A DNA stretch of 64,000 bases from Escherichia coli (GCF_024700885.2 NZ_CP117016.1); one strand, 5' to 3'; counted from the first letter of the stretch, positions 7,948 through 34,225 are shown. Made by a program: numbers and translations. The notes: a model not told the origin generated them from the sequence alone.

Positions 7948-8012
7948 TTACCTAAAAAACCACATATGGATAGACAACCCATAAATACGAACAGATATTA
8001 CCTTTCAGGTAA
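7948..8012. promoter_or_regulatory. divergent control region: TTACC half-site + AACCACATATGG motif (7948-7971) and full operator TTACC-TTTCA-GGTAA (7998-8012)
   Basis: Same palindrome family as in the cI/cro intergenic region. Confidence 0.5.
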
Positions 8013-8049
8013 TTCGCAAAACGTGCTGGATAGCAAACAAATTATTTGG

Positions 8050-8069
8050 TACTGTATAAATATACAGTT
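8050..8069. promoter_or_regulatory. LexA (SOS) box TACTGTATAAATATACAGTT
   Basis: CTGT-N8-ACAG with AT-rich spacer, overlapping a TATAAAT -10-like hexamer, 20 nt upstream of the ATG at 8089. Confidence 0.65.
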
Positions 8070-8088
8070 ATTGCATGGAGAAGATAAG

Positions 8089-8346
8089 ATGCAGCAGTAT
8101 CACTATCCACTGGAAGACGGATTTACCGAAAGGATTCACACGCCGGGAGGCGTCAGGTCACTGGTGGATGGATCGCACTTGATGAAATTACTCCGGGATC
8201 TCGATAAGGATGGATTTAATGTCGATGGCCCACTTGCCGAACTGACTGCACTGATTAACTACGTCACCAGCTCACAGATGTCTATGCAGGATCTGCAAAC
8301 ACATCTCGACTATTGTGCCGAACAATTACGAAAACAAACTACATAA
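8089..8346 (+). CDS. small LexA-box-preceded protein (85 aa), function unknown; candidate antirepressor or SOS-induced moron
   Basis: GGAG Shine-Dalgarno 9 nt upstream; start chosen at internal Met of ORF 7966-8346. Confidence 0.55.
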   Translation: MQQYHYPLEDGFTERIHTPGGVRSLVDGSHLMKLLRDLDKDGFNVDGPLAELTALINYVTSSQMSMQDLQTHLDYCAEQLRKQTT

Positions 8347-8350
8347 AGAA

Positions 8351-8369
8351 AAGGCCGCGAAAGCGGCCT
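8351..8369. terminator. hairpin GGCCGC-gaaa-GCGGCC, terminator for the leftward membrane-protein gene
   Basis: Perfect 6-bp stem; T-run on the minus-strand side. Confidence 0.5.
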
Positions 8370-8381
8370 GTGACATGTCAC
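8370..8381. repeat. 12-bp perfect palindrome GTGACATGTCAC (copy 1)
   Basis: Identical 12-mer also at 28555-28566. Confidence 0.8.
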
Positions 8382-8674
8382 GTTCCTTTTCTGAATGATA
8401 GCCATTCGAAAAATGATGACATTCCACCGCAGACAATAGCAAAGATGATCCCACCAAAGAAGAGAAGGCCAGCCTGCCACCACTCCCACCGCCATACATC
8501 CACAGCGCCAACCATACCAACAATCGCTCCAACAAATGGAATATAGCTCACGATGAAAGCGATGGGGGCTGCAATTATCCAGTGCAATCCCCACCATGAT
8601 TCAAGCCCAGCCATAATTGCTGCCAACTGAAAAAGACCAACGACGATATAAACAATGAATCCTATAGCTTGCAT
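8378..8674 (-). CDS. small integral membrane protein (98 aa), moron between ejection proteins and tailspike
   Basis: Three hydrophobic helices, Trp-rich; AGGTGA Shine-Dalgarno; preceded by a further ~50-codon hydrophobic ORF without ATG start (about 8700-8850). Confidence 0.55.
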   Translation of the reverse strand: MQAIGFIVYIVVGLFQLAAIMAGLESWWGLHWIIAAPIAFIVSYIPFVGAIVGMVGAVDVWRWEWWQAGLLFFGGIIFAIVCGGMSSFFEWLSFRKGT

Positions 8675-8869
8675 GTAGTCACCTATTTACCCAGTAAAAA
8701 TAAGAGGCCTCCCCTCAATAAGGCTTGCAACAAGAACTACTCCCTGCACAACAAAGATGAACCAGCAAATAGCTTGAGTCTGAGGGTTAAGAAAATATTT
8801 GTAGCGGTCAATAAATAACAATCCACCAGAAATTATCACACTCAAAATAATTAAAAACACAACACTTCC

Positions 8870-31808: not shown

Positions 31809-31869
31809 CTTTACCCTCGCTTATCCACATAACTTATTGATAACATTGATAACTAAAAAGATCGTCGAT

Positions 31870-32214
31870 TCAGAACTCTTCGATTTTCCATCCGCCACCT
31901 GCTTTCTTTGGCTTAACCGTTACCCCGATGATTCGGAACGGATACTGATCTGCGGCGATTTTGGTTTTCACCCTGGCGTCGTCTGTCCAGAAACCTTTCA
32001 CTTCGTGCAGTTCCATCTCTCCGGTGGCGAGCATCACAGCAAAATCTGGCGTATAGAACGTGTTGTCAGCTAACCGCAGCTTGATACCCTCGAATCGATA
32101 CCAGGCGATTTCCCCTGCACGTTTACGCTGCTCAAGGTGCTGGCAATACGCAGATTCTGTTTTGTTCATCTGGCCTGTTTTGAGTCGACCAAGAGCCTGC
32201 ATCTGTTTTCTCAT
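31870..32214 (-). CDS. DUF1064-like phage protein (putative nuclease)
   Basis: ~114 aa with YTPDF...HEVKG motif; nin-region position after P. Confidence 0.45.
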   Translation of the reverse strand: MRKQMQALGRLKTGQMNKTESAYCQHLEQRKRAGEIAWYRFEGIKLRLADNTFYTPDFAVMLATGEMELHEVKGFWTDDARVKTKIAADQYPFRIIGVTVKPKKAGGGWKIEEF

Positions 32215-32217
32215 GAT

Positions 32218-32294
32218 TTACCTCTGAGGTAATTAAAAACCACATAAGACACGAAATCAATAGAGTTTAGAATATTTTATTACCTGATGGGTAA
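32218..32294. promoter_or_regulatory. two operators TTACC-TCTGA-GGTAA (32218-32232) and TTACC-TGATG-GGTAA (32280-32294) flanking an AACCACATAAG motif
   Basis: Palindrome family shared with the immunity region; directly upstream of the gene starting at 32214. Confidence 0.5.
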
Positions 32295-32331
32295 TTATTT
32301 GAGCGTAAAAAAATGCGCTATCGCGCTGGTA

Positions 32332-33132
32332 TTACTTGATAAATCCTGCCGCCTTTCCCCGCCTGTATTCCTCCATCAGCCACTGCGCCGGTGTTATTCC
32401 CCCAAGGGTGGCGGCGTTAGGCATGCATCCGAAACTTCGCCCTGGTGGATGGTAAACGTCTCTCCCTGTGTCCGGAGGTGTACTCATGGGCTCTGGCTTT
32501 GCCTGTATGCTGATCACCGGATCGGGTATCTGCTGTCCGGAAGCCACCTTTTTCGCCCAATCATCGAGCAGCCTGCGCGCGTGTTTCTCAACCTCAATCT
32601 CGCTAAGCTGGCGCTGATACATTGCACGGCGGGTATCACATACGACCCAGTACATAACCGGATGTCGCCACGGGAATCTTTCGGGACCACCAGGATATAA
32701 ACTTTTTTCCTTGCTGTACCGGTGAAACTCCGCCATCACATCGTCAATGGTGACGCCAAGAACCATCTTGCTGTCTTTACACCACTTGATGAATTGCCCA
32801 GGCGACGGCCAGAACGGAGATTCACTGGCGCGGGCGTGGCGCATACCAGCAGAAACCTGTTCACGGGTTCGGATCCCCCCTTCGGCAAACGCAGCAATCC
32901 ACTGCTGTTTTGCAGCTACTTCCTGCCCTGGCGTCTTCAGGTTGGTTACCACTGCCGCCGGAAACAGTTGTTTCAGCTGTTTGAAAAGGGCATCAACAAG
33001 CCTCTCTGCTGACATGTTAACCACATTGTCATTGTTGACGTACTGATGCTCATAACCTGACATGCGAGAAAGGGCTTCTCCGTCACGGTTTTGTATCGCG
33101 GTAAAAACGTTGTTCACAAGAAATCCTCCCAT
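32332..33132 (-). CDS. replication protein P (DnaB helicase loader)
   Basis: GGIRTREQVSAGMRHARASESPFWPSPGQFIKWC closely parallels lambda P. Confidence 0.8.
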   Translation of the reverse strand: MGGFLVNNVFTAIQNRDGEALSRMSGYEHQYVNNDNVVNMSAERLVDALFKQLKQLFPAAVVTNLKTPGQEVAAKQQWIAAFAEGGIRTREQVSAGMRHARASESPFWPSPGQFIKWCKDSKMVLGVTIDDVMAEFHRYSKEKSLYPGGPERFPWRHPVMYWVVCDTRRAMYQRQLSEIEVEKHARRLLDDWAKKVASGQQIPDPVISIQAKPEPMSTPPDTGRDVYHPPGRSFGCMPNAATLGGITPAQWLMEEYRRGKAAGFIK

Positions 33133-33929
33133 GCTTCAGGGCTGTTCCAGTGCGGAACGTTGTTATCAGGTAATGTTGATTGCTTCTGTCTGCTAATCTG
33201 CAGCCGCCTTGCCAGCTTCTGCTCCCACTGTGCCTGATGGTATGCCTTACCCTCAGCCATCCAGTAAATTCTGAACTCTGCAAGTTCCTGTGCCGTTGGC
33301 AGACTGTCCAGGTAGATCCCCTGCAATGAGCTTTTCCGAAGAAAGTCATCTGATGGCTGCCATTGTTCATGCATGACAAATTTTCCTAATTGCCCTGGTC
33401 CACCAGGAGGAACAAAGTTATTCATCACGGCGTTGTTTGCTCCGGGGTCATGAGGCACAGAATCCCCGCTTTTTGTCCTGCTCTCCCTCTCTTGGTTAAA
33501 TGACTGGTTATATGACTGGTTCTGGATCCCGTTTTTGGGATCATTCAACATCCCGTTTTTGGGATCATTCAACATCCCGTTTTTGGGTATATTCCCGTTT
33601 TCGGGAACATTACCGTTTTCGGGTTCATTACGTCCTTCTAGGTTGCCTTTAATGTTCCCTTTTTTGGTTATATTAAGAGAGAAAACCCGCACTCTTTTCG
33701 TCGCTCCCTTTCTCTCTCCGGTATCTGAAATAAGCCCCATTTTCATGAGCGATATAAGCCCGGCCTGCACGGTTTTTTTATTCAGGCAAGTGTCTTTAAC
33801 GAGGCGTTCTATGCTGGGGTAGCAGAGGTTATATTCATCGGCTCTGTCAGCCATCGAGAGCAGTATGAGCTTTAATGACGAGCTACCTGGATCTGTCTCC
33901 CAGGCCCAATCTGTTGCATGTCTGCTCAT
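33114..33929 (-). CDS. replication initiator O-like protein
   Basis: Precedes P; N-terminal HTH-like region; central Asn/Pro/Gly-rich repeats encoded by the iterons. Confidence 0.7.
   Translation of the reverse strand: MSRHATDWAWETDPGSSSLKLILLSMADRADEYNLCYPSIERLVKDTCLNKKTVQAGLISLMKMGLISDTGERKGATKRVRVFSLNITKKGNIKGNLEGRNEPENGNVPENGNIPKNGMLNDPKNGMLNDPKNGIQNQSYNQSFNQERESRTKSGDSVPHDPGANNAVMNNFVPPGGPGQLGKFVMHEQWQPSDDFLRKSSLQGIYLDSLPTAQELAEFRIYWMAEGKAYHQAQWEQKLARRLQISRQKQSTLPDNNVPHWNSPEAWEDFL
33527..33640. repeat. origin-of-replication iterons inside the O gene
   Basis: About five direct repeats of ~23 bp (ATCCCGTTTTTGGGATCATTCAAC and CCGTTTTCGGG variants) followed by an AT-rich tract. Confidence 0.7.
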
Positions 33930-33944
33930 GATTAATCTCCGCTA

Positions 33945-34145
33945 TCAGCTTGAATGTTGTGGGGAGGAATTAATCATGATCTGCTTAATCTCAGCCCTGA
34001 TGCGACGGTTTGATTCCATGGTGCACTCAACACAGTGTCCGTTGTAAACCCAGCGTTCACTGTCATGTCCGTGCTTACATGGTTTTCCGGTGTAGTAGCG
34101 TTTAAGTCCGCGCTTTGCGGCATCAATACGTGTAATGATTTCCAT
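33945..34145 (-). CDS. small zinc-ribbon-like protein (CxHxH...CxxC)
   Basis: Start set at internal Met MEIITRIDAAK; occupies the cII-like position between cro and O. Confidence 0.4.
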   Translation of the reverse strand: MEIITRIDAAKRGLKRYYTGKPCKHGHDSERWVYNGHCVECTMESNRRIRAEIKQIMINSSPQHSS

Positions 34146-34225
34146 GGTAAGCCCTGTTATTAGTATTGGGATTACGGTCATTTTGTGCTGACACAAAAAA
34201 AAGATCAACCACATTTGGTTTTTTA

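Follow-up and report, generated by a model that had tools for sequence, protein, structure and literature searches.

A conserved 14-bp palindrome at promoters of an epsilon15-type Escherichia coli prophage: a putative second operator-like dyad beside the Rep operators

The prophage and the genomes compared

The 64,000-nucleotide stretch of Escherichia coli DNA analysed here (GCF_024700885.2, NZ_CP117016.1; hereafter the window) harbours a 39 kb prophage of the epsilon15/phiV10 type (Uetakevirus; 1539-40571), in which a 14-bp palindrome recurs in front of the gene modules. We propose, on the strength of its sequence, placement and conservation, that this palindrome represents a second, operator-like dyad in the core of six or seven Uetakevirus promoters controlled by the repressor Rep. 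The prophage ends are marked by att core repeats (ATTGAGTGGGA(A/G)TGATT, at 1539-1555 and 40555-40571), and phage ZX5 is reported to have an identical att core, located where guaA ends (3' side). Long stretches of the prophage are 93-98% identical to phiV10, phiv142-3, TL-2011b and ZX5, and its identity to Salmonella phage epsilon15 (eps15; genus Uetakevirus) is about 80%. The minus strand encodes the structural, lysis, replication and nin-like genes, and the plus strand encodes Rep and the early-left operon. The regulatory proteins that matter for what follows are:

33945-34145, minus strand: gp40, a zinc-ribbon protein (66 amino acids)
34296-34526, minus strand: gp39, a Cro-like protein (76 amino acids; recognition helix TSHYIQTHL, invariant)
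34681-35265, plus strand: repressor Rep (194 amino acids; helix-turn-helix (HTH) regions at amino acids 21-61 and 106-147), which presumably reads the primary operator and is a candidate for reading the palindrome
37619-37867: AlpA-family winged-helix protein
37977-38276: PerC-like protein

The primary operator, TTACC-N5-GGTAA, occurs 12 times in the window (1 occurrence expected) and matches the sites labelled 'protein_bind: repressor' in the eps15 record. Regions upstream of the lysis, tailspike, gp3/portal, terS, DUF1064/RuvC and gp40 genes were extracted from the window and from eight complete relatives (eps15, phiV10, SPC32H, Tyrion, BUCT554, Kp4865-1, BUCT711 and PAT1), giving nine genomes that are 70-100% identical. 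Three more distant prophages, one of them from Serratia (L091-L093; Rep 54-60% identical), were added to the comparison, as was an IMG/VR sample of 80 near-identical E. coli prophages of one common immunity type (L009-L088), in which the gp40 junction was inspected.

A 14-bp dyad at the module junctions

A preliminary description of the window had singled out four sequences (copies B, C, E and F below) as occurrences of a recurring motif, each 5 bp from a TTACC or GGTAA half-site. All four were recovered at the positions given there, with the half-sites at 7948-7952, 25171-25175, 32228-32232 and 34226-34230, and they do belong to a real recurring element, although not in the form in which it had been written: the 8-mer AACCACAT is not enriched in the window (5 matches against 2.6 expected, a number reached by 10 of 100 shuffles), and neither is a 12-mer allowing two mismatches. 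Hence, the motif was redefined as a 14-bp dyad. The fifth match to AACCACAT (33019-33026, plus strand) is attributed to chance, as it lies inside an open reading frame (ORF; 32332-33132), has neither palindrome nor half-site and falls below the threshold of the position weight matrix (PWM).

The actual unit is the imperfect palindrome A-w-C-C-A-w-A-T-r-Y-G-G-T-T, in which the arms AACCA and TGGTT surround an A/T centre. Among 27 distinct instances the gap between ACC and GGT is invariably 6 bp (AACC-N6-GGTT; C4, G11), the GGTT arm is present in 24, T14 never changes and the central A7/T8 is conserved; six of the seven mirrored position pairs are symmetric, the right arm being the stronger. With a matrix built without the window and phiV10, four window sites reached 18 bits or more (60 dinucleotide shuffles used as background gave a mean of 0.15 and a maximum of 1-2), and when matrices were rebuilt leaving out one clade at a time, the junction sites ranked top in every left-out genome. 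The scan also revealed two further junction classes, namely the PL spacer and the region upstream of a Bro-type moron (phiV10, Tyrion), and found no strong copies of the palindrome in the host part of the window (24 kb). The copies in the window, together with the half-sites and the operator next to them, are:

3525-3538, minus strand: copy A, AACCAAATATGGTT (a perfect copy, also written AACCATATTTGGTT), before the lysis module, whose first gene is 3059-3475; both arms perfect, 19-20 bits
7948-7952, minus strand: lone Rep half-site, reading GGTAA on this strand; it borders the -10 and lies 5 bp downstream of copy B
7958-7971, minus strand: copy B, ATCCATATGTGGTT, upstream of the tailspike gene (4819-7893)
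7998-8012: full primary operator, TTACCTTTCAGGTAA, with the tailspike promoter on one side and the LexA-controlled promoter of ant on the other
25171-25175, minus strand: lone Rep half-site, again GGTAA on this strand; 5 bp separate it from copy C, and 62 bp from the full operator (25233-25247)
25181-25194, minus strand: copy C, AATCATATGTGGTT, upstream of gp3/portal (24936-25142)
32238-32251, minus strand: copy E, TGTCTTATGTGGTT, with a decayed left arm, before the DUF1064 gene (31870-32214)
34207-34220, minus strand: copy F, AACCAAATGTGGTT, with perfect arms, before gp40 (33945-34145) and 5 bp from a degenerate operator (34226-34240)
35366-35379, plus strand: degenerate copy, AACCAAATACGCAT, in the PL spacer (12.6-13.5 bits), 5 bp from the operator at 35385-35399

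Copy A and the PL-spacer copy had been missed by the preliminary description. Copy A has orthologues in eps15, phiV10, SPC32H, Tyrion, BUCT554 and PAT1. The sites that are weak in the window have stronger counterparts elsewhere: the orthologues of copy E score higher in Tyrion (20.1 bits), Kp4865-1 (18.3) and eps15 (16.5), and those of the PL spacer reach 22.7 bits in Tyrion and 19.3 in BUCT554. The palindrome lies 23-64 nt from the start codon that it precedes, which gives an exact measure to the earlier remark that the motif is found just upstream of module start codons.

Placement within the promoters

Promoters were predicted from hexamers conserved in the alignments (in the ZX5 paper, too, promoters are predicted only), and the palindrome takes the following positions in them:

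Lysis promoter (relatives): -35 poorly defined; -10 TATGAT/TATAAT, 7 nt past the right arm; palindrome at about -34 to -21
Tailspike promoter: -35 TCCATA (7965-7970; TCCATA/TTCATA in relatives), 17-nt spacer, -10 TAGAAT (7942-7947); palindrome at about -36 to -23
Portal promoter: -35 ATCATA (25188-25193), 17-nt spacer, -10 TAATTT (25165-25170); palindrome at about -36 to -23
DUF1064/RuvC promoter (PE): -35 TTGATT (32255-32260), 17-nt spacer, -10 TTTAAT (32232-32237); palindrome in the 3' part of the spacer (about -26 to -13), abutting the -10
gp40 promoter (PF): -35 TTGATC (34203-34208), 17-nt spacer, -10 CAAAAT (34180-34185); palindrome at about -47 to -34
PL: -35 TTGACA (35357-35362), 17-nt spacer, -10 AATCAT (35380-35385); palindrome in the spacer, abutting the -10

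The palindrome thus lies between -35 and -10 at PE and PL, overlaps the -35 at A, B and C, and is found upstream of the -35 at PF, where copy F shares 2 bp with it. The right arm directly adjoins the -10 at PL and PE (0 nt), stops 7-10 nt short of it at A, B and C, and lies 21 nt from it at PF; the tailspike -10 is itself conserved, as TAnAnT, in every one of the nine genomes. The 5 bp separating palindrome and operator at PL and the DUF1064/RuvC promoter are formed by the first five bases of the -10. Judged by the conserved hexamers, the element is predicted to fall always within the footprint of RNA polymerase and at no single fixed position in it, and this combination fits an operator better than a recognition element for the polymerase. 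A core sigma-70 element would keep a fixed distance from the conserved -10, and the palindrome does not. At the tailspike and portal promoters the left arm doubles as the -35, and it is there that it strays furthest from the dyad, which accounts for the asymmetry of the matrix.

Some further promoter features were seen at these junctions. The gp40 -35 hexamer, TTGATC, holds a GATC (Dam) site. It is unchanged throughout the nine genomes and shares 2 bp with the right arm of the palindrome. On the plus strand of the portal junction, a conserved promoter (TTGACA-N17-TACCTT, 25211-25247) points away from the late genes, with its -10 and start lying under the full operator; it faces a tRNA-Arg(TCT) gene (25570-25646) and a gene-66/N4-gp49-like ORF (25943-26290), and the unit looks like a Rep-controlled divergent moron. 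Antisense promoters on the plus strand were considered as an identity for the motif and discarded: such hexamers come after it at three sites, their offset varies and the one at the tailspike is not kept in eps15. The sole conserved plus-strand hexamer is the TTGACA of junction C that serves the divergent tRNA/moron unit.

Register with the Rep half-sites and operators

Across genomes, a gap of 5 bp between the palindrome and a Rep half-site is found in six of the seven junction classes. The probability of such an exact offset by chance is 0.006 per prophage position, and 0.044 when only positions within 80 nt of an operator are counted. Three layouts share this gap: the tailspike and portal junctions have [palindrome]-N5-GGTAAT, the DUF1064/RuvC junction and PL have [palindrome]-N5-[full operator], and the gp40 junction, like the Bro moron, has GGTAA-N5-[palindrome]. 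Neighbouring pentamers are centred 10, 10 and 9 bp apart, so that the 5-bp gap spaces them by one helical turn and they look to the same side of the helix. The promoter of copy E is flanked by two operators (32218-32232 and 32280-32294). The fixed offset claimed in the preliminary description thus holds for the nearest half-site, but not for the distal full operator, which is found 5, 26, 28 or 38 nt away; accordingly, the placement about 30 nt downstream of a full operator is a fair description at 7958 (26 nt) and 32238 (28 nt), but not at 25181 (38 nt) or 34207 (5 bp, from a degenerate operator).

Tandem primary operators (3 bp between them, 18 bp from centre to centre) occupy the terS junction (28444/28462; 28444-28476) and OR (34594/34611; 34594-34625). 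Both terS and OR, the latter with two of its three operators, are tandem-operator places without a palindrome, and the operator-to-palindrome distance at the other junctions is 19.5 bp. No palindrome was found in the OR of any genome compared, nor at the terS and int junctions. The second terS operator reads GGTTA in the window and GGTAA in the eps15-type phages, the former being a rare variant among primary operators that was seen only at this junction. Perfect palindromes accompany degenerate operators (A, F), and decayed ones accompany perfect operators (E and PL, in the window). The palindrome and the primary operator have the ACC...GGT core in common, which is the only invariant part of the primary half-sites.

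Conservation

At five orthologous junctions of the nine genomes the 14-mer is kept in place, and the sequence from there to the distal operator is scrambled. GGTAAT next to copy B is invariant in all nine genomes, the eps15 orthologue of the nearby operator (7998-8012) is the site 19895-19911, annotated 'repressor', and copy C belongs to a 35-nt block that is nearly invariant. The same element occupies the same place in the three more distant prophages, including that of Serratia, so that the search among related prophages suggested in the preliminary description, in which absence of the motif would have counted against it, found the palindrome retained at homologous junctions of the eight relatives and beyond them. 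Palindrome and primary operator are both unchanged in every Rep clade sampled (homologues down to 52% identity).

Within the 80 IMG/VR prophages the arms of the gp40-junction copy are unchanged throughout, and position 9 varies freely (C 52, A 13, G 2, T 2). Fixed arms around a free centre are the pattern of a dimer site with an uncontacted centre. In the viral-contig scan via gp40 that supplied this set, these 80 near-identical loci were the only returns, none of them from a more distant context. Variation is also seen at a few operator spacer bases in the set, and is unusually high for single regulatory positions. Taken together, the alignments suggest that the 14-mer is under purifying selection, and the element shows the generic features of a dimeric binding dyad: symmetry, conserved arms, a tolerant centre and recurrence at regulatory positions in several genomes.

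Other features of the window

The lysis junction of the window (3380-3700) is unique: on either side of the palindrome its sequence departs from that of the eight relatives, and no match to these flanks was found in the phage collection. It has no Rep operator; an inverted repeat (TGTCA-N15-TGACA) is found in its stead, and a promoter-like sequence on the plus strand (TTGCCT-17-TATAGT) faces an ORF of 374 amino acids (3644-4768). At junction E, the segment from the operators through the palindrome and Shine-Dalgarno sequence to the ATG (window 32215-32300; L001 35900-35990; L004 37260-37345) leads into either a DUF1064 gene or a RuvC-like resolvase gene, which are swapped between phages. A perfect LexA box (TACTGTATAAATATACAGT, 8050-8068) lies immediately 5' of an 85-amino-acid ORF (8089-8346, plus strand) orthologous to the SPC32H antirepressor gene ant, and this arrangement indicates that the prophage is probably induced via LexA and Ant rather than by cleavage of the repressor. 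Within the gene for a primosomal (DnaT-like) protein, two direct copies of TGGGATCATTCAACATCCCGTTTTTGGG lie 24 bp apart (33536-33589); they resemble iterons and could be part of the replication origin. The host flank, with the small RNA genes sroE, STnc490 and IS128 (50194-50285, 62993-63116 and 63794-63972), is ordinary enterobacterial chromosome.

Identities excluded and candidate reader proteins

Several known identities were considered for the palindrome and set aside. It is not a primary operator, as its core gap is 6 and not 5 bp, its arms read GGTT and not GGTAA, its centre is conserved and it is missing from OR. A structured RNA is opposed by the absence of an Rfam match at any site and by fold z-scores of -1.7 to +0.3 with no shared structure, copies B, C and E not being self-complementary. 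As a site for the integration host factor (IHF) it fits poorly: relative to the 13-bp core consensus (WATCAANNNNTTR), the best alignments have at least two mismatches in the nine specified positions and are not conserved, and neither of the annotated eps15 IHF sites (2918-2940, 19910-19932) touches the palindrome. A mini-ORF starting from the ATG inside CATATGTGG exists at copies B and C of the window, but eps15 lacks this ATG. In the eps15 record, repressor and IHF features miss the palindrome and only an 'RNase III' feature touches the lysis copy. The element is unannotated in the eps15 and phiV10 records, and no discussion of it was found in the literature searched, which left aside the primary eps15 and SPC32H papers, so that an earlier description is possible.

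Of the proteins that might read the palindrome, Rep is homologous over its full length to the SPC32H repressor (PDB 5D50/5D4Z) and has two XRE-type HTH regions. According to PMC9638917 (citing Kim et al. 2016), Rep binds DNA as a tetramer, with DNA-binding pairs drawn from different dimers. The Cro-like and zinc-ribbon proteins, which the preliminary description had put forward as binders, turned out to be the least supported. The only homologue of gp39 outside the genus is found, in the Cro position, in pOW20-A (L089), an unrelated marine Psychrobacter siphovirus with operators of the form ATACC-N5-GGTAT (8760-8800, 9640-9710) and a repressor that joins a Rep-like N-terminal domain to a different, S24-like C-terminal domain. 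The pOW20-A genome has no palindrome; since it has homologues of Cro and of the Rep N-terminal domain alongside such operators, both of these go with the primary operator. We rejected gp39 as the reader on this ground and because no OR, where Cro must act, has a palindrome. The zinc ribbon of gp40 was likewise rejected, being a generic domain, common among virulent phages, that frequently forms part of an HNH or EndoVII nuclease; no such sites exist in the Vibrio phage whose gp40-type domain (in an HNH fusion) is 63% identical. The AlpA-like protein (PF05930) is the best-conserved regulator (78-94% identity in the nine genomes). It matches only PDB 8C3T, an uncharacterised AlpA-family entry for which no describing paper was found, and not the complexes of AlpA with RNA polymerase or the Pseudomonas antiterminator; PHROGs places it with excisionases and regulators.

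Interpretation and alternative explanations

Given the dyad, its conservation, its geometry and its placement in promoters, we infer with high confidence that the palindrome is a protein-binding site. As to its function, we tentatively favour an auxiliary operator that works together with the tetrameric repressor Rep, or with a partner of Rep, in closing the -35/spacer region. The palindrome would serve the lytic promoters that do not have a tandem pair of primary operators; a dimeric HTH unit would bind it beside Rep on the adjacent half-site or operator, the joint complex would block the -35/spacer and silence each module in the lysogen, and Ant, produced once LexA is inactivated, would release the complex. 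The most economical candidate for the reader would be the second DNA-binding unit of the Rep tetramer. A link to Rep is favoured by the ACC...GGT core common to both motifs and the GGTTA variant at terS, by the tetrameric binding of Rep, by the lack of a palindrome where primary operators stand in tandem (18 bp between centres, against 19.5 bp from operator to palindrome), by the pairing of perfect palindromes with degenerate operators and the reverse, by the constancy of both motifs in all Rep clades sampled, and by pOW20-A, where a repressor with another C-terminal domain goes with the absence of the palindrome. The earlier proposal of a second DNA-binding factor or phage-specific promoter element agrees with these findings in so far as a conserved dyad in the promoter core, in register with the half-sites, is kept across genera, with the qualification that its reader may be Rep itself.

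A more far-reaching version, which strikes us as improbable, makes Rep bipartite: the N-terminal and the C-terminal HTH would each read one palindrome, a single tetramer would span the composite of about 34 bp, and Ant, which grips the C-terminal domains of Rep, would strip off the second contact.

Several observations speak against an auxiliary operator for Rep. The C-terminal HTH is close to neutral (isoelectric point 6.6-9; that of the N-terminal domain is about 10), and clades differ in helix 3 of this HTH (AQVTISR or GPATVNR) while the motif stays the same. The strict consensus that the palindrome has of its own (GGTT, the 6-bp gap, A7/T8) implies a different reading head or binding mode, and it is unclear why, if Rep could use a normal operator at these places, none is present. 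The lysis junction (A) has no half-site 5 bp away in most genomes. The variable position relative to -35 and -10 fits a purely repressive role and would also permit activation at some promoters. Lastly, a literature search that did not take in the primary SPC32H and eps15 papers found no binding data for the palindrome sequence.

The main alternative is a separate phage regulator as the reader, one that would time the modules by acting as an activator or polymerase loader at the tailspike, portal, lysis and gp40 promoters and as a brake at PL and PE. We consider such a regulator less likely than the Rep reading, but a serious rival to it. The candidates would be the AlpA-family protein, gp40 (whose own promoter has a perfect copy at about -40) and the PerC-like protein, and all three are encoded in the nine genomes. 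A distinct reader would suit a motif that differs from the primary operator and obeys a strict consensus; the late promoters have weak -35 hexamers overlapped by it, and the gp40-promoter copy is centred at about -40.5, a classical activator position. Pseudomonas AlpA and lambda Q, which load onto RNA polymerase from an element between -35 and -10 (PMC7969949), offer a precedent, and the modules here are separated by terminators. Yet the AlpA-like protein has no detectable relation to the Pseudomonas antiterminator and is filed with excisionases, terminator scans detected none between the motif-bearing promoters and their first genes, and the gp40 domain is widespread, nuclease-fused and, in the Vibrio phage, not accompanied by sites. 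The strict 5-bp register with Rep would go unexplained unless the factor contacts Rep, and the inconstant position relative to -35 and -10 would be unusual for an activator or loader.

The explanations that dispense with a phage-encoded reader seem to us weaker. That the block is simply sigma-70 promoter sequence (-35 and spacer) of a duplicated promoter family, with no dedicated protein, is very doubtful: at the tailspike and portal the left arm does supply the best -35 (TTCATA, TCCATA, ATCATA), 17 nt from a conserved -10, and is more variable there than at junctions free of promoter duty, but the best-conserved bases (GGTT and the central AT) occupy spacer positions that sigma-70 does not read, the placements differ by promoter (about -47 to -34, -36 to -23 and -26 to -13), and the dyad, the fixed arms around a free centre and the Rep register would all be left without a cause. 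A host transcription factor of the Enterobacteriaceae, which would couple the prophage to host physiology, is an even fainter prospect. It would explain why phages of Escherichia, Salmonella, Klebsiella, Enterobacter and Serratia have one and the same motif when the phage regulators are only 42-60% identical, but we know of no host-factor consensus that the palindrome matches (IHF is mismatched, and GntR-type, RutR, MqsA and HipB sites appear to have the wrong half-site orientation or spacing), strong copies are missing from the host DNA of the window and a phage partner is suggested by the strict spacing from Rep half-sites. The shared recombination linker envisaged in the preliminary description, in which short conserved border sequences promote the exchange of modules among related phages, is the least credible of all and would be at most a by-product. 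Swaps do occur precisely at these junctions, as junction E keeps an identical sequence up to the ATG before non-homologous DUF1064 or RuvC genes and junction A of the window keeps the palindrome between flanks unrelated to other phages; however, selection for homology would need more than 14 bp, the invariant arms, free centre, dyad, operator register and promoter placement are what a protein-binding site predicts, and regulatory junctions that are conserved can be expected to undergo exchange as a side effect.

Relation to known systems and significance

An auxiliary operator of the kind we favour would resemble the primary Rep operators in many respects (inverted repeats, ACC...GGT core, A/T flanks, presence at the same junctions, promoter overlap and genus-wide conservation), with the difference that the N5 of the latter is free and the A7/T8 centre of the palindrome is conserved. 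In lambdoid phages, repressors bind cooperatively to adjacent OR1 and OR2 and pair OL with OR through tetramers or octamers. The likeness lies in neighbouring sites on one face of the DNA that let a single oligomer hold a promoter, a strong site helping a weak one; the lambda sites, however, are all of one sequence class, whereas here the partner site is of a distinct class (in the candidate reading with Rep). With the lambda Q-binding element (QBE) and the Pseudomonas AlpA element (GGGACG-N5-GGTA, between -35 and -10; PMC7969949), the palindrome shares the form of a short specific DNA element in phage lysis and late promoters, and the prophage does encode an AlpA-family protein, but no promoter-proximal terminator or pause element was found here, and dyad symmetry and variable position set the palindrome apart. 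As in T4 MotA boxes and lambda CII sites, which are asymmetric or direct-repeat sites of known activators, the element replaces or overlaps a weak -35 some 30 bp upstream of the start, next to a good -10; no MotA, AsiA or CII homologue was seen among the prophage proteins.

Podoviruses of the epsilon15/phiV10/SPC32H type are used as reporter and biocontrol phages and serve as a model for antirepressor-driven induction with a tetrameric repressor. In published annotation their modules are controlled by one operator class only, and a second, equally conserved element in six or seven promoter cores means that the known wiring is incomplete. If Rep reads the composite site, the view of its 'non-canonical' DNA binding would change, and a bipartite Rep, if true, would be a repressor architecture and an induction mechanism undescribed for phage switches. 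If another regulator gates the late, lysis and replication modules, it would be the missing timing device of a phage group for which we know of no late activator. The palindrome also offers a compact handle for the engineering of these phages.

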